Source: Octopus vulgaris
Lineage: Eukaryota
Assembly: GCA_951406725.2 (NCBI GenBank)
Contig: OX597824.1
Location: forward strand, 24,552,001 to 24,616,000
Reading direction: 5' to 3'
DNA length: 64,000 nucleotides
Part shown: positions 3,056 through 59,539 of the stretch, one piece after another
How the letters are laid out: the number at the start of each line of letters is the position of its first letter
Numbering within the stretch: position 1 is the first letter of the stretch
Notes under the pieces: model-generated
The model's input: the letters and a program-made list of their open reading frames with translations, nothing else
Database searches by the model: none
What the model was told of the DNA's origin: nothing
Position numbers and translations under genes: made by a program

Positions 3056-3627
3056 GTTTCTTTATTACCCACAAGGGTCTAAACATAGAGAGGACAAACA
3101 AGGACAGACAAACGGATTAAGTCGATTATATCGACCTCAGTGCGTAACTGGTACTTAATTTATCGACCCCGAAAGGATGAAAGGCAAAGTCGACCTCGGC
3201 GGAATTTGAATTCAGAACGTAACGGCAGACGAAATACCTATTTCTTTACTACCCACTAGGGGCTAAACATAGAGGGAACAAACAGAGAAACGGATTAAGT
3301 CGATTATATCGACCCCAGTGCGTAACTGGTACTTAATTTATCGACCCCGAAAGGATGAAAGGCAAAGTCGACCTCGGCGGAATTTGAATTCAGAACGTAA
3401 TGGCAGACGAAATACCTATTTCTTTACTACCCACAATGGGCTAAACATTGAGGGAACAAACAAGGACAGAGAAACGGATTAAGTCGATTATATCGACCCT
3501 AGTGCGTAACTGGTACTTAATTTATCGACCCCGAAAGGATGAAAGGCAAAGTCGACCTCGGCGGAATTTGAACTCAGAACGTAACGGCAGACGAAATATA
3601 GTTAAACATTTCGTCCGGCGTCCTAAC
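3056..3627 (-). mobile_element. SINE multimer: partial head plus 3 bodies
   Basis: Three head-to-tail units joined at GAAATACC|TATTTC (3238 and 3416). Confidence 0.9.
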
Positions 3628-20003: not shown

Positions 20004-20585
20004 AAACAACAACTATCGGCGGGGTATTTTTCGTTTGTCACTATTATTTATGATATCGTTCGTGCCTCTGTACCGGTTTTAGCTTTAAGGTTTTAGGGTT
20101 AGGGTTTTAGGGTTAGGGTGTTAGTGTTAGCGTTTTAGTGTTAGGGCTACCACCTGTGTCATCTCTTGTGAAAGGTAGGAGAGTCCAGTTTGCTGGACAT
20201 TGTTGTAGAGCTGAAAAAGAAGTAATTTCTACTCTTCTCCTCTGGAAGCCATCTACTCGCAATACCAGAGGGCGCACACTCTCCTACCCTGATGTAATCT
20301 CCAGAGATACAGGCATCCAGCAACAGGACCTCCGTAATGCCATGATGGACCGTGAAGTCTGGCGTAGCATGGTAAATTCCATTGTCTCGACCACGGTCGA
20401 ACAATGATGATGAATGATGTTAGGGCTACGGTTTCAGGGTTAGGATTAGGGATTCAGGGTTAGGGCTAGGGTTTAGGGTTAGGGTTTTAGGGTTAGGGTG
20501 AGGGTTAGGGCTTCAGGGTTAGGGTTAGGGTTATCATACATAACAGTGACAAACAAAAAAAATACACTGCAGGAGGTTCTTGTTG
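20004..20585. mobile_element. Degenerate (TTAGGG)n tract between ~50-bp inverted repeats
   Basis: Left arm AACAACAACTATCGGCGGGGTATTTTTCGTTTGTCACTAT matches the reverse complement of 20532-20585; followed by a MITE-type end ...GGTAAAGATCC at 20812. Confidence 0.7.
20147..20417 (+). mobile_element. RTE/RTE-X-like 3' end inserted in telomere-like repeat
   Basis: Encodes LPPVSSLVKGRRVQFAGHC...VEQ*; (TGA)n tail; 12-bp TSD TGTTAGGGCTAC at 20139-20150 and 20418-20429. Confidence 0.9.
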
Positions 20586-22386: not shown

Positions 22387-22545
<159 letters not shown>

Positions 22546-23198
22546 GAGTGTCGCGTTGCTCTCAAGCAACTCTGCCGTCCTGGGTCGACTTTGAGTGACT
22601 TCAACACAACCAAAGCATTCTATAGGGGTTTAGTGGAGGGGAGGTACGACGACGAGCTCGGGGCGAACCTGGACGTCGACGAGGAGTACCTGACCCGCCT
22701 GTTCAGGACGACTTTCGGGCCAGAGGCAAGTTTTGTCTAGCGAATGTTTTAAAAAAAGATGGGTGAATGTAGCAAGAATGGCACGTATGAATGACGAAGC
22801 CACCTTGAGCATGATCCTATGAACCCAGAAATTGAAAACAGAGAGTTGCTTATTCGCAAAAAAAAAAAAAATGAAATATAACATGTGACTCCATTAACCG
22901 AGGTTACCGTGGTCTTTTCCGTAGGCTTTTCTTTCCACGGGTAAACCTCACCTGTCCTCCCCTTTACACTTCATATTGACATTTCTGTGATAACGATCCC
23001 TATTGATCAATTTTTTTTTCCTCTCCCCTTTTTTTAACCCCCCTTTTTTTTGTCCTCTTTCTCATCTTTTACGATCCCTTTTGATCGAAACTCCCCCTTC
23101 CTTTTTTTTTTTTTTTTTTTTTAAACCTTCAAAAGAAAAGCTCTACCTTGTAATTTGTTCTGTCTGTGTGCAGCCCTGTGTGGCTAATAAAGAAACAT
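22546..23198 (+). mobile_element. Tx1/L1-like LINE 3' fragment with internal deletion, in (TATC)n
   Basis: Encodes [11 protein letters not shown]...LFRTTFGP, then SECFKKRWVNVARM...IL* (stop 22820-22822); pyrimidine-rich UTR with AATAAA; clade call is from remembered C-terminal pattern. Confidence 0.6.
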
Positions 23199-23402
23199 AT
23201 CTATCTATACCTGTTTATTTATCTGTCTCTGTCAATCTATCATCTCTCTCTTTCTCACTTCCTCCATTGTGTGTGTGTGTGTGTGTTTGTGTGTGTGTGC
23301 ATGTGTGTATGTGTGTGTGGGGGGGCGCGCGCTGTGAATGTAATTTTCTTCGTTTAACCACGTGTATCACATATCTATCTGTCTTTTTCCCTGTCTATTT
23401 AT

Positions 23403-26659: not shown

Positions 26660-27255
26660 GAAAATGATGTTAGTCAACTTTAGAAATTCACCCAAGGCTT
26701 CATTCCTGTAGCGCCTGTCCTCTACAAAAATCGAACTCGCGTCACGCTACATTAGAACACTAAGACAGAACCTTAATGGGCCTGCTCCCTTTAACATCAT
26801 GCCAAGACACACGAGGAAAGAAAAAGAGCTCGTAATATTCAAATGTTTCCAAGACAACAAATTCCAGATAAACCATCTGCGTCCGGATATATCTCTCCAA
26901 ACATAGGTGCCTAAACTGTTTCCTTTGATGTGCTATGGTCCCGTAATGATGAAACGTGATTAAATGTCTTCGCTTTTGATGTTGTTAAGTTAATCATGGC
27001 CTGCACCAATACTGGCCGAAACCTATCTAAGTATATAAGTACCTAAGTAACACAAACTATCTAAACTTCACTTAGACATGCGCAGAATCAAGGCGACTGA
27101 AACACACACAAAAAAAAAAAGTTGGAATACCGCCATTATTTATTTATTTAATTATTTATTTATTTATGTATTTATCTATTTATTTGTCAAAATGCCCGAT
27201 CCTGACAACGATCTCACATCACTATAGTACAATGGCAACCACAAAATTGACTTAC

Positions 27256-27337
27256 TTAGAACCGTCGTTACTGGACCAGACATCAGAAAATCACCTCGCC
27301 TCCGGTCGCGCAACATGTCACCCGGCCAGTCCAGCAT
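27256..27337 (-). CDS. Speculative first coding exon (MLDWPGDMLRDRRRGDFLMSGPVTTVL)
   Basis: GC-rich unique stretch; ATG at 27337, open to a consensus GTAAGT donor at 27255; no recognisable homology. Confidence 0.2.
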
Positions 27338-27605
27338 TGCTCGCTCGCTCTCTCGTACGTCCCAACATCATTCATTTTCGAGGCCGGTCCAGTCGGCAAG
27401 TAGGTTATTAAAGACACCTCTGCCCATTTTGAATTCTGTGGCCACCGTCCTGCTGTTTCTATTGATGGAAACCCTTACGGAGATCTAAATGGCGAAATAC
27501 ACATCAGACAATGTAGGCCTAAATAAACTAACAGATGTGGTGGTCATGTTTAAAATGCCTTATAAAAATGGTTCTCATTCTATTTTAGTTCACGACTTAA
27601 TAGAT

Positions 27606-28733
27606 ATTCGCTTCTGCTCGAGGCACAAGGCCCGAAATTTTGGGGCAGGAAGACAGTCGATTGGGTCGACCTCAGTACGCAACTGGTACTTAATTTATCG
27701 ACCCCGAAAGGAGGAAAATTAAAGTCGACCTCGGTGGAATTTGAACTCAGAACGTAAAGATAGACGAAATACCTATTTCTATTTCTTTACTACCCACATG
27801 GGCCAAAAACACAGAGAGGACAAACGGATTAAGTCGATTATATCGATCTCAGTGCATAACTGGTACTTATTTAATCGACCCCGAAAGGATGAAAGGCAAA
27901 GTCGACTTCGGAGGAATTTGAACTCAGAACGTAGCGGCAGACGAAATACCTATTTCTTTATTACCCACAAGGGGCTAAACACAGAGAGGACAAACAAGGA
28001 CAGACAAACGGATTAAGTCGATTATATCGACCCTAGTGCGTAACTGGTACTTAATATATCGACCCCGAAAGGAGGAAAATTAAAGTCGACCTCGGTGGAA
28101 TTTGAACTCAGAACGTAAAGATAGACGAAATACCTATTTCTTTATTATCCACAAGGGGCTAAACACAGAGGGGACAAACAAGGACAGACATAGGTATTAA
28201 GTCGATTACATCGACCCTAGTGCGTAACTGGTACTTAATTTATCGACCCCGAAAGGATGAAAGGCAAAGTCGACCTCGGCGGAATTTGAACTCACAACGT
28301 AATGCAGACGAAATACCTATTTCTTTATTACCCACAAGGGGCTAAACACAGAGGGGACAAACAAGGACAGACATAGGTATTAAGTCGATTTCATCGACCC
28401 CAGTGCGTAACTGGTACTTAATTTATCGACCCCGAAAGGATGAAAGGCAAAGTCGACCTCGGCGGAATTTGAACTTAGAACGTAACGGCAGACGAAATAC
28501 CTATTTCTTTATTACCCACAAGGGGCTAAACACAGAGAGGACAAACAAGGACAGACATAGGTATTAAGTCGATTACATCGACCCCAGTGCGTAACTGGTA
28601 CTTAATTTATCGACCCCGAAAGGATGAAAGGCAAAGTCGACCTCGGCGAAATTTGAACTGAGAACGTAACGGCAGACGAAATACCGCTAAGCATTTCGCC
28701 CGGCGTTTCTAACGTTTCTGCCAGCTTGCCACC
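27606..28733 (-). mobile_element. SINE multimer: head plus 6 bodies; terminal body has the alternative tail
   Basis: Five junctions at the fixed site; single TSD TTCACGACTTAATAGAT at 27589-27605 and 28734-28750. Confidence 0.9.
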
Positions 28734-28849
28734 TTCACGACTTAATAGATGTTAATTCATTACTGACACACTAGAAATTAAATTAGTGACGTATTTCACA
28801 TGAAAAATTTTAGAGATGAAAATTAGAAAATTCACCGCGTATCAACATG

Positions 28850-29170
28850 GTGAAGATATGTGGCTTACTAGTTAGGGTGTTCAGCTCACGATTGTAAGTT
28901 CATGAGTTCGATTCCCGGCAGCGTGCTGTGTTCTTGAGCAAGACGCTTTATTTCACGTTAATCCAGTCCACTCAGCTGCCAAAAATAAGTAGTGTCTGTA
29001 TTTTAAAGGGCCAGCCTTGTCACATTCTATGTCACGCTGAATTTCTCTTAGAATTACGTGAAGGGTACGCGTGTTAGTGAAGTCTCAGCTACTTGCACGT
29101 TAAATTCAACCGCAGGCCGTTAATCGGATCAGCTGGAACTCTCGTCGTCGTAACCGACGAAATTCCAGTT
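28850..29170 (+). mobile_element. Diverged SINE (head 2, tail A)
   Basis: Reverse-complement homologue of 9058-9375. Confidence 0.75.
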
Positions 29171-29879: not shown

Positions 29880-30452
29880 ATTATCTCCTCTTCAGCCACA
29901 GAAATCTTGGGGGAGGACGTCAGTCGATTAGAACGATCTCCGCGCGCAACTGATACTAAATTTATCGACCCCGAAAGGATGAATGGCAAAGACGACCTCG
30001 GCGGAATTTGAACTGAAAACGTAGCGGCAGACGAAATACCTATTTCTTTACTACCCACAAGGGGCTAAACAGAGAGGGGACAAACAAGGACAGACAAACG
30101 AATTAAGTCGATTATATCGACCGCAGTGCGTAACTGGTACTTATTTAATAGACCCCGAAAGAATGAAAGGCAAAGTCGACCTCGGTGGAATTTGAACTGA
30201 AAACGTAGCGGCAGACGAAATACCTATTTCTTTACTACCCACAAGGGGCTAAACTCAGAGAGGACAAACAAGGACAGACAAACGAATTAAGTCGATTATA
30301 TCGACCGCAGTGCATAACTGGTACTTATTTAATCGACCCCGAAAGGATGACAGGCAAAGTGGACCTCGGCGGAACTTGAACTCAGAACGTAACGGCAGAC
30401 GAAATTACCGCTAAGCATTTCGTCCGGCGTGCAAACGATTCTGCCGGCTCGT
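29880..30452 (-). mobile_element. SINE multimer: head plus 3 bodies; terminal body has the alternative tail
   Basis: Junctions GAAATACC|TATTTC near 30040 and 30224. Confidence 0.9.
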
Positions 30453-30554
30453 TGTTTCAATAATGATAATGATGATTAATGACAGAGAATATAGAATCTG
30501 CAGGAAAGGCGATGAAAGAGAGTGTAAATGAAGACACGACCGTGTAGGTAAAGA

Positions 30555-30925
30555 GGAGGCGCAATGGCCCAGTGGTTGGGGCAGCGGACTCGCGGTTTCG
30601 ATTCCCAGACCGGGCATTGTGAGTGTTTATTGAGCGAAAACACCTAAAGCTCCACGAGGCTCCGGCAGGAGATGGTGGTGATCCCTGTTGTACTCTTTCA
30701 CCAAAACTTTCTCTCACTCTTACTTCCTGTTTCTGTTGTACCTGTTTTTTAAAGGGCCGGCCTTGTCACTCTCTGTGTCACGCTGAATATCCCCCTAGAA
30801 CTACGTTAAGGGTACACGTGTCTGTGGAGTACTCAGCCACTTACACGTTAATTTCACGAGCAGGCTGTTCCGTTGATTCGGATCAACCGGAACACTCATC
30901 GTCGTAACCGACGGAGTGCTTCCAT
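30555..30925 (+). mobile_element. tRNA-derived SINE (head 1, tail A)
   Basis: Homologous to 6468-6853. Confidence 0.85.
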
Positions 30926-31878: not shown

Positions 31879-32628
31879 TATTATGGCTGCACCCTCGTTA
31901 TCGAGTATGGCTATTGCACGAAGCTTAACTGTTACTGGTGCTGTGATCGAATGTGACTTTTTAGCCCAGCTAAAGATCTACAATGTCTTGTACAGTATTG
32001 GCAACAAAAACCTTTGCCAGTAATAGCCGGCTGTAGTTGTAACTGAGCTTCATGTACCTTTGCATGTCGTTTAAGTCCTCCTGCCGAATTACACTCTCTT
32101 CCACATGCCCGACAGGTATGATTAGTATGGTGTGTTACACCACCACAAGTGGCCAGGTTGTCACTCATCTGTCTCGCTTTATGACTACGAAGATGACTCT
32201 TGAGTCCAGCTTTACTGAGGCAGGGTCTTGCACAGACATTGCATGTCAGCATCAAAGGAAGACCCTTCCCATCTGGAAGTGTAACAGCGATGCCCTTCCT
32301 GACATCCCTCCTTACTTTCTCATGTGCAACTCGAGATTTCTCAAAAGTGGCTGTCCCCTCGTGCACAATCCTTCTCCAACTGCTACTCTCAATAGCTTTG
32401 CCTTCCCATGTGTCAGGAGAGATGGAAGCATCTCTTAAGGATCGTGATCTTGAAATATTGGAAGGCTCTTGGTGTGAAAGTATAGAAGCTCTTGTGTTAA
32501 ACCAAAGGCTCAGATGGAGTGGTCATCTGGTCAGGATGAAGGATTCAAGGATGCCAAAACAATTCTTTTATGGAGAGTTAGCTAAAGGAGAACGACCTCC
32601 ACATAAACCAAAAAAGAGGTATAAGGAC
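31879..32628 (-). mobile_element. RTE-clade LINE 3' fragment with 5' inversion and three C2H2 fingers
   Basis: Minus 32438-31932 encodes LRDASISPDTWE...FEKSR plus 3 C2H2 fingers; plus 32444-32628 encodes RLRWSGHLVRMKDSRMPKQFFYGEL...KRYKD; 17-bp TSD GACATACATACATACAT. Confidence 0.85.
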
Positions 32629-36411: not shown

Positions 36412-36611
36412 ATTAACATTGGTTTCAAGTTTTTGCACAAGGCCAGCAATTTCAGGGAGAGGATAAGTCTATTACATCATCCCCAATGCTCAGTTGAACC
36501 TCGGTGAAGTTTGAACTCAGAGCGAAAAATGTGGACGATATGCGGGTATACATTTCTCCCAGGCCTGGTAACCATCCTGCCAGCTCGCTGCCTTCAATAA
36601 TTATAATCATA

Positions 36612-38335: not shown

Positions 38336-39120
38336 AAGGCGGCGAGCTGGCAGAAACGTTAGCACGCCAGGCGAAATGCTCAGCAGTATTTCGTCTGTCG
38401 CTACGTTTTGAGTTCAAATTCCGCCGAGGTCGACTTTGCCTTTCATCCTTTCGGGGTCGATTAAATAAGTACCAGTTACGCACTGGGGTCGATATAATCG
38501 ACTTTATCCCTTTGTCTGTCCTTGTTTGTCCTCTCTGAGTTTAGCCCCTTGTGGGTAGTAAAGAAATAGGTATTTCGTCTGCCGCTACGTTCTGAGTTCA
38601 AATTCCACCGAGGTTGACTTTGCCTTTCATCCTTTCGGAGTCGATAATTTAAGTACCAGTTACGCACTGGTGTCGAAATAATCGACTTAATCCGTTTGTC
38701 TGTCCTTGTTTGTCCTCTCTGGGTTTAGCCCCTTGTGGGTAGTAAAGAAATAGGTATTTCGTCTGCTGCTACGTTCTGAGTTCAAATTTCACCGAGGTCG
38801 ACTTTGCCTTTCATCCTTTCTGGGTCGATAAATTAAGTACCAGTTATGCACTGGTGTCAAAATGATCGACTTAATCCGCTTGTCTGTCCTTGTTTGTCCT
38901 CTCTGTGTTTAGCCCCTTGTGCGTAGTAAAGAAATAGGTATTTCGTCTGCAGTTACGTTCTGAGTTCAAATTCCACCGAGGTTGACTTTGCCTTTCATCC
39001 TTTCGGAGTCGATAATTTAAGTACCAGTTACGCACCGGGGTCGATACAATCGACTTAATCCGTTTGTCTGTCATTGTTCGTCCCCTCTATGTTTAGCCCC
39101 TTGTGGGCAATAAAGAAATA
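38336..39120 (+). mobile_element. SINE multimer: head plus 4 bodies of 184 bp
   Basis: Bodies 2-4 start at 38569, 38753 and 38937; single TSD AGAAACCTG at 38327-38335 and 39121-39129; inserted in another SINE. Confidence 0.95.
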
Positions 39121-39399
39121 AGAAACCTGTCGGGCTCACAATCATGAGGTAATGAGTTTGATTCTCGCACTGGGCTCTTTGTTGTGTTCTTGAGCAAGAC
39201 ACTTTATTTCACGCTGCTCCAGTTCACTCAGCTGTAGAAATGAGTTGCGACGTCACTGGAGCGGAGCTGTATCGGCCTTTGCCTTTCCCTGGGAGTGTCG
39301 AAAATGAAGATGGTTACGTAACTCTTGTTATTTTCTCATTTATTAATTAATATTATGCACTGTACCTGCTTGACACTTTACTTTGAAGCAAAAGTATAT

Positions 39400-39859: not shown

Positions 39860-40665
39860 CACACACACACACCACACAACTACATCCTAAACCACCACGG
39901 CTTCTACAACACACAGACCATACAACTACTACCTAAACAACAGACTACGCCAACCACTACAGTTAAATGCACCACAGTACTATAGCTAACACACCCACAC
40001 ACAACTACTATGGCCCAAACACACATACTACACTACCACAGCACATACACACACACACCATACAACTACTACGTAAACCACTACAGTTAAACGCACTACA
40101 GTACTATAGCTAACACACCCACACACAACTACTATAGCCCAAACACACACACACGCATACTATACTACTACAGCGCATACACACACTACACAACTACATC
40201 CTAAACCACCGTGGCTTCTACAACACACAGACCATACAACTACTACCTAAACAACAGACTACGCCAACCACTACAGTTAAACGCACCACAGTACTATAGC
40301 TAACACACCCACACACAACTACTATGGCCCAAACACACACACACACACAACAGCACATGCACACGCACTACACAACTACATCCTAAACCACCATGGCTTC
40401 TACAACACACAGACCATACAACTACTACGTAAACCACTACAGTTAAACGCACCACAGTACTATAGCTAACACACCCACACACAACTACTATAGCCCAAAC
40501 ACACACACACATACTACACTACTACAGCACATACACACACTATACAACTACATCCTAAACCACCATGGCTTCTACAACACAGCCCATACAACTACTACGT
40601 AAACCACTACAGTTAAACGCACCACAGTACTATAGCTAACACACCCACACACAACTACTATGGCC

Positions 40666-40710
<45 letters not shown>

Positions 40711-42020
40711 CTACATCCTAAACCACCATGGCTTCTACAACACACAGACCATACAACTACTACGTAAACCACGTAAACCACTACAGTTAAACGCACCACA
40801 GTACTATAGCTAACACACTCACACACAACTACTATAGCCCAAACACACACACACATACTACACTACAACAGCACATGCACATGCACTACACAACTACATC
40901 CTAAACTACCATGGCTTCTACAACACACAGCCCATACAACTACTACGTAAACCACTACAGTTAAACGCACCACAGTACTATAGCTAACACACCCACACAC
41001 AACTACTATGGCCCAAACACACACACACACACACAACAGCACATACACACCATACAACTACATCCTAAACCACCATGGCTTCTACAACACACAGACCATA
41101 CAACTACTACGTAAACCACTACAGTTAAACGCACCACAGTACTATAGCTAACACACCCACACACAACTACTATAGCCCAAACACACACACACATACTACA
41201 CTACTACAGCACATACACACACTATACAACTACATCCTAAACCACCATGGCTTCTACAATACAGCCCATACAACTACTACGTAAACCACTACAGTTAAAC
41301 GCACCACAGTACTATAGCTAACACACCCACACACAACTACTATAGCCCAAACACACACACACATACTACACTACTACAGCACATACACACACTATACAAC
41401 TACATCCTAAACCACCATGGCTTCTACAACACAGCCCATACAACTACTACGTAAACCACTACAGTTAAACGCACCACAGTACTATAGCTAACACACCCAC
41501 ACACAACTACTATAGCCCAAACACACACACACATACTACACTACTACAGCACATACACACACTATACAACTACATCCTAAACCACCATGGCTTCTACAAC
41601 ACAGCCCATACAACTACTACGTAAACCACTACAGTTAAACGCACCACAGTACTATAGCTAACACACCCACACACAACTACTATAGCCCAAACACACACAC
41701 ACATACTACACTACTACAGCACATACACACACTATACAACTACATCCTAAACCACCATGGCTTCTACAACACAGCCCATACAACTACTACGTAAACCACT
41801 ACAGTTAAACGCACCACAGTACTATAGCTAACACACCCACACACAACTACTATGGCCCAAACACACACACATACTACACTACCACAGTACATACACACAC
41901 TATACAACTACATCCTAAACCACCATAGCTTCTACAACACACGGCCTATACAACTACTACGTAAACCACTACAGTTAAACGCACCACAGTACTGTAACTA
42001 ACACACCCACACACAACTAC
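39860..42020. repeat. 170-bp satellite, about 13 copies
   Basis: TATAGCCCAA at 41171, 41341, 41511 and 41681 (period 170); ACAGTTAAA occurs 13 times. Confidence 0.95.
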
Positions 42021-42941: not shown

Positions 42942-43228
42942 GGATCTTTTCGGTTTGAACGGCAATTTTTTCTAGTGGTGTCATATGAAATTGTCACTCG
43001 TAATTATAACCCTATTATCGATCTATTGCATTTCAATGTCTTAGGGTTAGGGTTAGGGTTAGTTAGAGTTAGTTAGGGTTAGGGTTAGGACTAGGGGTGG
43101 AGGGAAGGTATCTTTTTTTCTTCACAAATGTAAATAAACCCAATCTGTTTCTACCAGTATACGAAGTTTAAAATTTTTTAGTTACCTAGAAATTATGTTA
43201 CAAACTGCCGTTCAAACCGAAAAGATCC
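42942..43228. mobile_element. MITE, Merlin-like, internally deleted
   Basis: Same TIRs as 26231; 8-bp TSD CTTTCTTT; several internal TTAGGG units. Confidence 0.9.
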
Positions 43229-43950: not shown

Positions 43951-44610
43951 AAAGGCGGTGACCTGGCAGAATCGTTAGCACGCGAAATGCTTAGCGGTAT
44001 TTCGTCTACCGCTACGTTCCGAGTTCAAATTCCGCCGAGGTCGACTTTGCCTTTCATCCTTTCGGGGTCGATTAAATAAGTACCAGTTACGCACTGGGGT
44101 CGATATATATTTCTTTACTACCCACAAGGGGCCAAACATAGAGGGGACAAACAAGGACAGACAAAGGGATTAAGTCGATTACATCGACCCCAGTGCGTAA
44201 CTGGTACTTAATTTATCGACCCCGAGAGGATGAAAGGCAAAGTCGACCTCGGCGGAATTTGAACTCAGAAAGTAACGACAGACGAAATACCGCTGAGGAT
44301 TTCGCCCGGCGTGCTAACGTTTCTGCCAGCTCGCCGCACTGGGGTCGATATAATCGACTTAATACCTTTGTCCTTGTTTGTCCCCTCTATGTTTAGCCCC
44401 TTGTGGGCAATAAAGAAATAAGACCCGTTAGCACGCCGGGCAAAATGCTTAGCGGCATTTCGTCCGTCTTTACTTTCTGAGTTCAAATTCCGCTGAGGTC
44501 AACTTTGCCTTTCAACCTTAATGAGTACCAGTTGAGTACTGGAGTCGATGTAATCGACTTAACCACTTCCCCTAAATTGCTGGCCTTGTGCCTATAGTAA
44601 AGAATAACAT
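43951..44610. mobile_element. Three nested SINEs of the 184-bp family
   Basis: Minus copy 44108-44335 has a 17-bp TSD GCACTGGGGTCGATATA and sits inside a plus copy, which abuts an alternative-tail copy. Confidence 0.9.
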
Positions 44611-45329
44611 TAGTACAAGACTAAGGCAGCGAGCCGGTAGAATCAATGGCACACCGGACCAAATATATAGCGGCGTTTAATTCGTCTTTACATTCTGAGT
44701 TCAAGTTCCACCGAGGTTCACTTTACATTCTTTTGAGTTCGATAGAATAAGTACCAGTTGAATACTGAGGTCGATGTAATCAACTTACCCTACTGAAATT
44801 GCTAGCCTTATACCAAAATTTGAAACCAATATTTCCAATAACAACAAATACGACACTGTGGACATGAAGTAGCCACTACATGGTCTCTCGATCTGCTAAA
44901 AATAGTAGTGAAATCACCAGCTAATCACTAATTCGTCGTCGTAATGCGGCTCCGGGTTTTCTGTACTTAATGAAATAGATGGGATGGACACAGCTAGAAG
45001 CATTTCGATCAAAGATCCGATCGGTCATGGGTCTCTTGCTGTTAAAGAAATAAGAAGAACAATATCATTAGTAATAATGATGATTCAAAAAAGAAATACA
45101 TCACGTGGTTATTTGGCGAGGTAGAAACAGCAGCCAAATGTTTCTTCAGTTATTATTACACGCTGCTATACTAAAATGAAAGTACAATCTTAGATACCCC
45201 GTTCTTAAAAACGCACAAATGGTTATAGTTGGAGTGAGCATGAGACATCTTGGCACAGCCGTTTTGGCGTTACTTGTTTGGCGTCACTGACTGAAGCTGA
45301 TTTATTTGACACAAGCCGTTTTAATGTTC

Positions 45330-51175: not shown

Positions 51176-52325
51176 ATCTTTTCTAACATAGGTACAAGGC
51201 CTGAAATTTGGAGGAGGGTGATAGTCGATTGCATCGACCCCAGTACTAAACTGGTACTTAATTTATCAATCCCGAATAGATGAAAGGCAAAGTCGACCTC
51301 GGCGGAATTTGAACTCAGAACGCAACGGCAGACGAAATACCTATTTCTTTACTACCTACAAGGGGCGAAACACAGAGGAGACAAACAAGGACATACAGAC
51401 GGATTAAGTCGATTATATCGACCCCAGTGCGTAACTGGTACTTAATTTATCAACCCCGAAAGGATGAATGGCAAAGTCGACCTCGGCGGAATTGGAACTC
51501 AGAACGTAACGGCAGACGAAATATCTATTTCTTTACTACCTACAAGGGGCGAAACACAGAGGAGACAAACAAGGACAGACAGACGGATTAAGTCGATTAT
51601 ATCGACCACAGTGCGTAACTGGTACTCTGTCGCTACGTTCTGAGTTCAAATTCCGCCGAGGTTGACTTTGCTTTTCATCCTTTCGGGGTCGATTAAATAA
51701 GTACCAGTTACGCACTGGGGTCGATGTAATCGACTTAATCCGTCTGTCTGTCCTTGTTTGTCCTCTCTGTGTTTAGCCCCTTGTGGGCAGTAAAGAAACA
51801 GGTATTTCGTCTGCCACTACGTTCTGAGGTCGACCTTGCCTTTCATCCTTTCGGGGTCGATTAAATAAGTACCAGTTACGCACTGGGGTCGATGTAATCG
51901 ACTTAATCCGTCTGTCTGTCCTTGTTTGTCCTCTCTGTGTTTAGGCCCTTGTGGGTAGTAAAGAAACAGGCATTTCGTCTGCCGCTACGTTCTGAGATCA
52001 AATCCCGCCGAGGTCGACTTTGCTTTTTATCCTTTCGGAGTCGATTAAATAAGTACCAGTTACGCACTGGGGTCGATGTAATCGACTTAATCCGTCTGTC
52101 TGTCCTTGTTTGTCCTCTCTGTGTTTAGCCCCTTGTGGGCAGTAAAGAAACAGGTATTTCGTCTGCCACTACGTTCTGAGGTCGACCTTGCCTTTCATCC
52201 TTTCGGGGTCGATTAAATAAGTACCAGTTATGCACTGGGGTCGATATAATCGACTTAATCCGTTTGTCTGTCCTTGTTTGTCCTCTCTGTGTTTAGCCCC
52301 TTGTGGGTAGTAAAGAAATAGGTAT
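51176..52325. mobile_element. Two headless SINE multimers in inverted orientation (about 2.5 units minus, 4 units plus)
   Basis: Strand switch near 51626; plus-strand units start near 51627, 51801, 51970 and 52152. Confidence 0.9.
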
Positions 52326-52780: not shown

Positions 52781-53012
52781 AAGGCGGCGAGCTGGCAGAA
52801 ACGTTAGCACGCCGGGCGAAATGCTTTGCGGTATTTCGTCTGCCGTTACGTTCTGAGTTCAAATTCCGCCGAGGTCGACTTTGCCTTTCATCCTTTCGGG
52901 GTCGATAAATTAAGTACCAGTTACGCACTGGGGTCGATATAATCGACTTAATCGATTTGTCTGTCCTTGTTTATCCCCTCTGTGTTTAGCCCCTTGTGGG
53001 TAGTAAAGACAT
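52781..53012 (+). mobile_element. Intact monomeric 184-bp-body SINE with short A-tail
   Basis: TSD AATTCTTCAAT at 52769-52779 and 53020-53030. Confidence 0.9.
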
Positions 53013-53910
53013 AAAAAAAAATTCTTCAATAAAAAGCGTGAACTGTCTCATGAACTCCGATCACTGAATATTCAGTACCAGTCCAAGTAGTTACCTATTA
53101 TGTAACAAGATACTATCCCCTATCTTTTAACGCTTCGGGCAACTATAGCGTAAGGGACTACAAAGAAGAAAAAATAGGGGGTTACTAATTTAAAAAATGT
53201 CGATTGTCAGAACACAACACACATGGCAAAAGAACCCGGCAGAATACATGCACGACTTAGAAAGAAGTACAAATGTCCATTTGTTCGATGAAACCTTCCA
53301 AAGCGATGTCCCTGGACGGCTGCAGTCTAATATCTAAAACAAGTAGAAAGATTTCAGGTTTTAGACTGCGGCCATGCTGGGGCACCACCTTCAAGAATTT
53401 TAATCGAACCTACACTAGTATTTAATTTTATTTTAAAGCCAGGTACTTATTCTATCAGTTCTTTTCGCCGAACCGCTAAGTTACGGAGTCGTAAACAAAC
53501 CAACACCGGTTATCAAGCGGTGGTGATGCACAAACAAACACTGTCATATACATATATACGACGGGATTCTTTCAGTTCACGTCAACCATATCCACTCACA
53601 AGGGTTTGGTCGGCCTGAGGGTATAGGAGAAAAGACTTGCACGATATACTACATAGCGGGATTGAACCCGGAACCATATTGTTGGGAAGCAAACTTCATA
53701 CCCTGTAGCCACGCCTGCACCTAGAGCTACGCCTGCGCCTAGAGCCACGCCCACCTTTTAATATATATTTTTAAGTACTGTATCAAAAGGAGTAGATTCC
53801 TTTTATGTTCTGAGTTCTTATTCTTCCTATCTTGGTTTTACTTCTTATTTCTCTCAGGTTTCACCTCTTGCTTCTCCTCCTCCTCCGACAACCACCAAAC
53901 TAAACGTACA

Positions 53911-59342: not shown

Positions 59343-59539
59343 ACGGTATTTCGTCTGCCGCTACGTTCTGAGTTCAAATTCCACCGAGGTCGACTTTGTC
59401 TTTTCGAGGTCGATTAAATAAGTATTAGTTATGCACTGGGGTCGACGTAATTTGAGACGTTACGTTTCCAGTAGAAAGGATTGTTGTTGTCGTCGTCATC
59501 ATCATCATCATCATCATCATCACCATCATCACCATCACC

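Follow-up and report, generated by a model that had tools for sequence, protein, structure and literature searches.

Short SINE-derived tandem arrays with one exact internal joint and differing last tails in a 64,000-nt window

The stretch from 27589 to 28750 was found to be a single minus-strand element enclosed by two identical 17-nt TSDs; positions are those of the window, the whole 64,000-nt stretch of Octopus vulgaris DNA that was analyzed. Read in the sense direction, this array (array E, 27606-28735, minus) comprises a head of about 50 nt followed by six units, every one of which starts at GGTATTTC. Tail A (..AAAGAAATA) closes each of the five upstream units, and tail B the sixth (Table 1). 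The period of the family, 184 nt, corresponds to the 233-nt monomer, for which monomer K can serve as reference, minus the head. Units E1 to E3 are mutually close, with 4 to 7 differences per 184. The family was classed as a SINE because it is short, interspersed and present in many copies, with 233-nt monomers and variable TSDs, and because its 3' region (tail A) is common to the family and a LINE. The head folds into a long stem in the fold of monomer K and is presumably tRNA-like, a judgment made by eye from A- and B-box consensus motifs. For the SINE head and the window, ARAGORN gave 0 tRNA genes and Rfam no tRNA match. A ribozyme of the kind found in retrozyme-type circular RNA repeats was also sought: no Rfam family of any kind reached its gathering score across the window, and near monomer K a search at E up to 10 returned two chance hits and nothing else.

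Table 1. Features of array E and of related copies in the window
Feature	Position	Strand	Description
Array A	3057..3626	-	diverged 5'-truncated head, 3 units, final tail A, 10-nt TSD
Further tail-A monomers	16316, 24007, 25395		
LINE 3' end	22537..23200	+	internally deleted ORF2 end and 3' UTR; last 50 nt align to tail A
TSD copy, tail side of array E	27589..27605	none	17/17 exact match to 28734-28750
E6, last unit	27606..27773	-	tail B; body of tail-B type from about position 13
E5	27774..27950	-	tail-A unit; 14-nt deletion; GAAATA doubled at its end
E4, chimera	27951..28134	-	same front as E6 over 1-78; type-A back and tail
E3, E2, E1	28135..28685	-	near-consensus tail-A units; common locus-private letters at unit positions 124 and 128
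Single SINE head, array E	28686..28735	-	A-box-like motif; 5' arm and loop of 13-bp hairpin
TSD copy, head side of array E	28734..28750	none	first two bases overlap the head's leading AA
Array F	29880..30458	-	old-type head, 2 tail-A units, last unit with diverged B-like tail
Array H	38336..39120	+	head, 4 units, final tail-A variant, 9-nt TSD
Control cluster	43952..44835	both	four family copies, nested or abutting
Array J	51176..52325	both	two headless halves in opposed orientation
Jm half of array J	51176..51626	-	3 units, final tail B
Jp half of array J	51627..52325	+	4 units; tail A and five bases of next unit at end
Monomer K	52781..53013	+	near-consensus tail-A SINE, 233 nt, 11-nt TSD
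Copy L	59345..59480	+	headless; starts one base before unit start; tail-B-like end

Six dispersed arrays of this family were recognized in the window (A, E, F, H, Jm and Jp), or five if the halves of J represent one event. TSDs of 9 to 18 nt were present at 9 of the 14 loci searched, and in A, E and H they enclose the complete array; the same search found none for array F or array J. Runs of 4 to 5 T occur in E, F, H and Jp, and A and Jm have no run of 4 or more. Array J holds an internal inversion and resembles either a DNA-level inversion or a product of twin priming; five units across both of its halves have a private letter in common. The control cluster contains two nested insertions. A full tail-A monomer lies antisense, flanked by a TSD of 17-18 nt, inside a 5'-truncated tail-A copy, and this host copy in turn sits in sense orientation, flanked by an exact 11-nt TSD, within a tail-B monomer's head; a tail-C monomer follows the tail-B monomer. 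The last unit of array H (39095-39125) and monomer half I3 (44395-44425) have in common a tail-A variant ending AAGA, which is found at 0/17 internal joints.

The distribution of tails was then set against a sequence-only reading of the window, by which the arrays are polarised and their last units always differ from those upstream. All 17 internal units carry tail A, as had been proposed for the upstream units, and none carries an alternative tail. The last unit ends in an alternative tail in three of the six arrays (E, F and Jm), and A, H and Jp terminate in tail A. Alternative tails thus did not occur internally as often as terminally in the window (0/17 against 3/6; Fisher p = 0.011, or p = 0.006 for 3/5 with J taken as one event, in tests whose units are not independent). 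Polarity was therefore upheld in the sense that the alternative tail is never internal, but the general rule does not hold, since the three tail-A-ended arrays (3057-3626, 38336-39120 and 51627-52325) had been left out of it. Among the individual ends that had been named, the arrays at 27606 and 51176 do end in tail B; the array at 29880 has a B-like tail retaining only the C-rich AAGATTTC part and lacking the GGCCTTGTGCC part, so that the assignment stood only in part. The three B-type ends are mutually unlike, that of F being only partly B-like. The monomers at 36420, about 44415-44620 and about 44626-44835 carry tails of B/C type, in agreement with the same reading.

The origin of tail A was deduced from the LINE 3' end in the window. 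Only the end of ORF2 is present, and the two pieces encoded by 22537-22819 match the two ends of a protein with a zf-RVT domain, the one homologue found, at 81% and 73% identity. The zf-RVT domain is carried by Tx1-clade elements. Alignment of the LINE end to tail A was better than in 500 of 500 shuffles; for the B/C tails, the shuffles matching the alignment to the LINE end numbered 0 for I4, 7 for G and 175 to 396 for three others (500 each). On these alignments, the LINE is the likely partner of tail A. The LINE piece itself was inserted into a run of (TATC)n. Tails A, B and C (27606, 28318, 36420, 44572 and 51176) all have a CTTGT motif flanked by short arms complementary to each other, which may be a common recognition signal. 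A significant tail hairpin was rejected, as the folding of six tails was no better than that of shuffles (z from -0.86 to +1.36).

Outside the window, SINE-like repeats in metagenome contigs have a 30-35-nt core in common with the family, together with other heads and tails, at 121 of 121 loci, which had been chosen by a motif of that core (monomer positions about 100-135). The core motif was found in 0 prokaryote genomes and had no match in the portion of the PMC4824008 supplement covered. The family may already be named in the supplements or figures of PMC4824008 and PMC3531059.

Across the window the 17 internal joints coincide to the base, tail A running directly into the unit start in every case. 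The joint motif gave 17 matches in the window and 0 in 100 shuffles, as well as 0 in metagenome contigs and 0 in viral contigs, and a TSD or target remnant was observed at 0/17 internal joints. In the fold of monomer K a 13-bp hairpin carries a 4-nt apical loop, and the unit start (monomer position 50) is the base with which its 3' arm begins, directly behind this loop. The last six bases of tail A can pair with unit positions 3-8, which lie two bases away from the joint, and five of the six tail bases are also identical to part of the 5' arm of the hairpin. The six-bp duplex between tail A and the unit was calculated at -3.6 kcal/mol (with the tail of E2), and B/C tails gave -2.0 to -8.9 kcal/mol in other registers. 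Splicing of a tRNA intron was considered as the cut and rejected, since the joint lies away from the splice sites expected from tRNA geometry.

E4 and E6 show 0/78 front differences, while either differs from the other E units at 8-11 of 77-78 positions. With this pair set aside, the E units differ at 2-11 of 77-78 front positions, and on this ground a single rolling-circle event, which the sequence-only reading had already disfavored, was rejected. The two-apart pattern of E4 and E6 recurs in H2 and H4 (2/78 front differences) and in Jp2 and Jp4 (0/62, with a common 16-nt deletion), whereas neighbors are alike instead in A2/A3 and F2/F3. Seventeen shared variants are confined to one locus; shuffling the labels 1000 times gave 3.6 on average and 11 at most. 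It was deduced from this that units were copied locally. The identity of the two fronts supports the proposal of local copying from the last unit. It does not extend to the proposal that their common variants are private, because some are tail-B family states: the T at unit position 16 also occurs in G, I4 and I5, and only positions 55 and 61 are confined to array E.

Differences in divergence along the arrays were also observed. Head divergence exceeds that of the first bodies in four arrays (18/173 against 14/476 changes, p = 0.0003), and five monomers show no such excess over their bodies (12/232 against 19/548, p = 0.32); the head-excess contrast between arrays and monomers is itself not significant (p = 0.21). 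The body position of the boundary between young and old sequence varies among the arrays: no later than 12 in E, beyond 2 in A, beyond 48 in F and between 74 and 95 in J. In array F, the head and first front have five non-consensus letters in common with the old monomer I5 (head 13, 21 and 36; body 34 and 48), and the last unit is without the two at body 34 and 48. Array A has two changes at positions 1-2 of its first unit that are absent from its last unit, followed by 0/66 changes at positions 13-78 of the first unit. The B-type letters of array E begin at position 13, with 0/12 changes before. An older age of tail-A last units relative to internal ones was rejected (9/212 against 62/1777 changes). 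Position 17 after the joints reads C in 8, T in 7 and the B type in 2, and is linked to positions 78-81 (21/26, p = 0.004, from units that are not independent).

To place the joint in a wider context, contigs of three related organisms (C, D and E) were aligned to 27190-27850, which covers the flank, the TSD, E6 and the tail of E5. Three runs aligned 81,000-116,000 contigs each; a fourth, of raw reads, aligned 5 of 12.9 million. As GAAATA is doubled in E5, the standard joint reads here as six letters omitted at 27773. At the unit start the joint had a depth of 410,988/1,570,876 (26%, 64 contigs) in organism C and 422,340/1,647,561 (26%, 66 contigs) in organism D, against 359/1,410,010 (0.03%, 1 contig) in organism E, a contrast of about a thousand-fold; these depths are sums over contigs rather than copy numbers, and a joint with another tail end in organism E would escape. 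Tail-A-type body letters at three sites amounted to 44-52% in organisms C and D and 14-19% in organism E. The joint is thus real and abundant, and it is likely to be younger than the tail-A subfamily, although it may instead have been lost in organism E. A joint from tail B to a unit start was absent from the 15 of 198 joints and the 12 of 399 between-letter changes listed, one run being partly counted. Head letters were discarded as clean markers of types A and B, since contigs ending at 27773 have mixed heads.

In the flank of array E, organisms C and D gave zero depth across 27190-27442. A single contig of 798 nt from organism E spans 27190-27571, with 24 other letters of about 372 aligned and 10 gap letters, and most likely stops there, 18 bases short of the TSD. 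E6 departs from the majority letter of the related-organism contigs at no fewer than 13 of 168 sites, yet the TSD of array E is perfect.

A single head per array, a joint fixed at the hairpin tip and mosaic units are established traits of these arrays. We hypothesized that a young joint was copied by homology into resident SINE copies of any tail type and that local unequal exchange followed, and we give this reading a probability of about 0.5. The joint would postdate the tail-A subfamily and have formed on one or a few occasions, possibly through a nested insertion that used the 5-nt match and lost the loop. The donor would be a joint-holding array elsewhere, acting as DNA or as the cDNA of a read-through transcript; it would pair with a resident copy within the common 119-nt body and add whole periods, while the host retained its own head, tail and TSD. 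Later out-of-register exchange within the array would copy the front of the last unit upstream. Because the tail of the host lies outside the repeated period, it never becomes internal, so that the polarity of the arrays largely follows from geometry and needs no targeting enzyme. The proposal that tail-A periods were added to an older relative is supported. The proposal of insertion targeted to a fixed site is not, as 0/17 joints have a TSD and two nested insertions lie elsewhere with TSDs; the constant position makes better sense as a joint passed on by donors than as an insertion target. Where the sequence-only reading had left a choice between self-targeted insertion and conversion, conversion is the better half, and self-targeted insertion is unlikely.

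Several results were counted for a copied joint: 17 of 17 joints on the same base without a TSD, the mixed last tails (3/6) with boundaries at differing body positions, the excess divergence of array heads over first bodies that monomer heads do not show, the five letters common to F and I5 in the head and first front with two of them absent from the last unit, the 17 locus-confined variants, and the joint at 0.03% in organism E despite its tail-A-type letters. Counted against it were the non-significant head-excess contrast together with tail-A last units that are not older, and the boundary in array E, which requires a crossover no more than 12 nt from the joint. The inversion of array J, with its likeness to a retrotransposition product, was also counted against it. 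The perfect TSD of array E beside a diverged E6 speaks mildly against long residence at the site. Both alleles of position 17, as well as the B type, stand after joints, and more than one founder or early shuffling is therefore needed.

A somewhat unlikely alternative is that the joint is made anew at each retrotransposition, with reverse transcriptase stopping at the hairpin tip and jumping to the 3' end of another SINE RNA, or, in a variant, with the RNA cut in the loop and joined to that end by an RNA ligase. Only tail A would be accepted, by way of the six-base pairing after the joint, while the first template could be of any tail type. The unit start at exactly the first base of the hairpin's 3' arm and the pairing of the end of tail A with unit positions 3-8 are as expected, although the same complementarity is also explained by the 5-nt match of tail A to the 5' arm in a single founding event, and the duplex is weak, with B/C tails pairing too in other registers. 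Joints that lead into three body types and the headless copy L, which starts one base from the joint place, also agree, and E6 could then be B-type from its first base in an array with a perfect TSD. Against this, organism E has tail-A-type bodies and almost no joints (its tail end is not readable), the boundary of array F lies inside the body, and the locus-private variants require later local copying in any case. If it were true, the end of tail A would mimic the 5' arm of the hairpin and hitch onto RNAs of every subfamily, and this would account for the joint having become roughly a thousand times more frequent in one group of related species. Distinctly unlikely, in our judgment, is that whole multimers were retrotransposed from a few source arrays by read-through from the single head, the B-ended sources being B-ended already. 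TSDs around the entire arrays A, E and H, the lack of runs of 4 or more T in A and Jm, the inversion of J with both halves from one source, and the overrun of Jp into the first five bases of a further unit, expected from internal priming on a multimer, are consistent with it; the mutually different B-type ends, private variants common to no two arrays, the T runs in E, F, H and Jp, and the old head and old tail around the young periods of F, which it leaves unexplained, are not. Such retrotransposition can act alongside the copying of a joint.

An endonuclease nicking the hairpin tip, with tail-A RNA copied in and the upstream end resolved by homology so that the old 3' half stands last, was judged improbable. 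It fits array E, whose B-type sequence sets in no more than 12 nt from the joint. The partner LINE has zf-RVT in a close relative, and in the available parts of the sources Tx1-clade elements often have target preferences (PMC4494074) and homology-primed 5' junctions are known for R1/R2 (PMC2718515). However, SINEU-3 and R1 leave TSDs between copies according to these parts (PMC4494074, PMC2718515), and 0/17 joints here have one; eight TSDs of at least 9 nt at tail-A or E insertions are unlike the joint site; and both nested insertions lie at positions other than the hairpin tip. Units pushed in at position 50 would furthermore leave the old sequence from 50 on as the last unit, which A and F contradict, as their old letters are in the first unit and not the last (A positions 1-2; F 34 and 48). 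That each array is a single rolling-circle copy of a 184-nt circle, or that the arrays are an artefact of assembly, was considered highly improbable: the fixed period, the fixed joint and the closeness of E1 to E3 would suit rolling-circle copying, but mosaic units and differing last tails do not, and the occurrence of the joint in contigs of both organism C and organism D argues against an artefact.

Comparison with known systems was made with the available parts of the cited papers. In these, the blood clam Scapharca broughtonii has TSD-(SINE)n-TSD arrays with a full first head and head-truncated later units (PMC11481361), and the present arrays are alike in their one TSD pair, head truncation at one position and a last tail unlike the internal ones. 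As described there, the last unit has the complete tail of its family and the internal ones are cut short. The internal tail of the present arrays, by contrast, is LINE-derived and complete, their last tail can belong to another subfamily, and one joint stands at all loci. Squamate SINE-derived satellites (sSat) have extended end units and alternating sub-variants, for which the sections available propose unequal recombination (PMC10702118). Likenesses to sSat, as far as those sections describe it, are a unit that starts before box B, longer terminal units that reach the SINE ends and lineage-specific abundance; by the measures used for sSat, the tandem unit here (184 nt) is shorter than the 233-nt SINE with the head on the first unit, and of the at least four middle units used there array E has four and A, F and H one or two. 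The same sections give sSat loci of hundreds of units near telomeres and short loci with variable unit limits (PMC10702118), unlike the 3-7 units here, which are dispersed (5-6 arrays per 64 kb) and have one exact joint even at short loci. Head-to-tail multimers are described as common for Dip and B2 SINEs, sometimes of mixed families (PMC8466645), with full-length units in the portion seen of a second source (PMC10702118); here all but the first unit are headless. For SINEU-3, partnered by Tx1, and for R1, the available parts describe sequential site-specific insertions that leave a TSD between copies (PMC4494074, PMC2718515). The tandem copies at a fixed position, and possibly the type of LINE partner, are similar here, but no TSD lies between copies and monomers use differing targets. 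Exchange of SINE modules by non-allelic recombination or template switch appears as a standard idea in the accessible part of PMC4758252.

For cephalopods, no report of such arrays was found by title or abstract start, a scope that excluded subscription papers and Repbase. New here are SINE-derived arrays that are short, have a single exact joint, combine a complete internal tail of LINE origin with mixed last tails, and differ sharply between related organisms. How dispersed repeats turn tandem at many loci at once is an open question that these arrays address, since every array is marked by the exact joint and keeps, in its last unit, a record of the host or first template. The interesting part is the origin and spread of the joint, and the contrast between organisms makes in-place conversion, retrotransposition of whole arrays and jumping of reverse transcriptase separable with existing genomes. 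Caution is warranted in that family copy counts and age profiles mix hosts with added periods.

Other repeats and one coding stretch were observed in the window. A second SINE-like family occurs at 28860-29160, 30560-30900 and 39130-39260, with two copies within about 130 nt of an array end. Pfam searches of 14 ORF-like stretches gave a result above the curated cut-off only for a C2H2 zinc-finger ORF (31932-32519, minus), and arrays E and F lie 1.5-4 kb downstream of it on the same strand. A minisatellite of 10.4 copies of 170 bp (93% matches) extends over 40258-42020, and interstitial TTAGGG-like runs are present at 20075-20146, 20419-20533 and 43041-43089.
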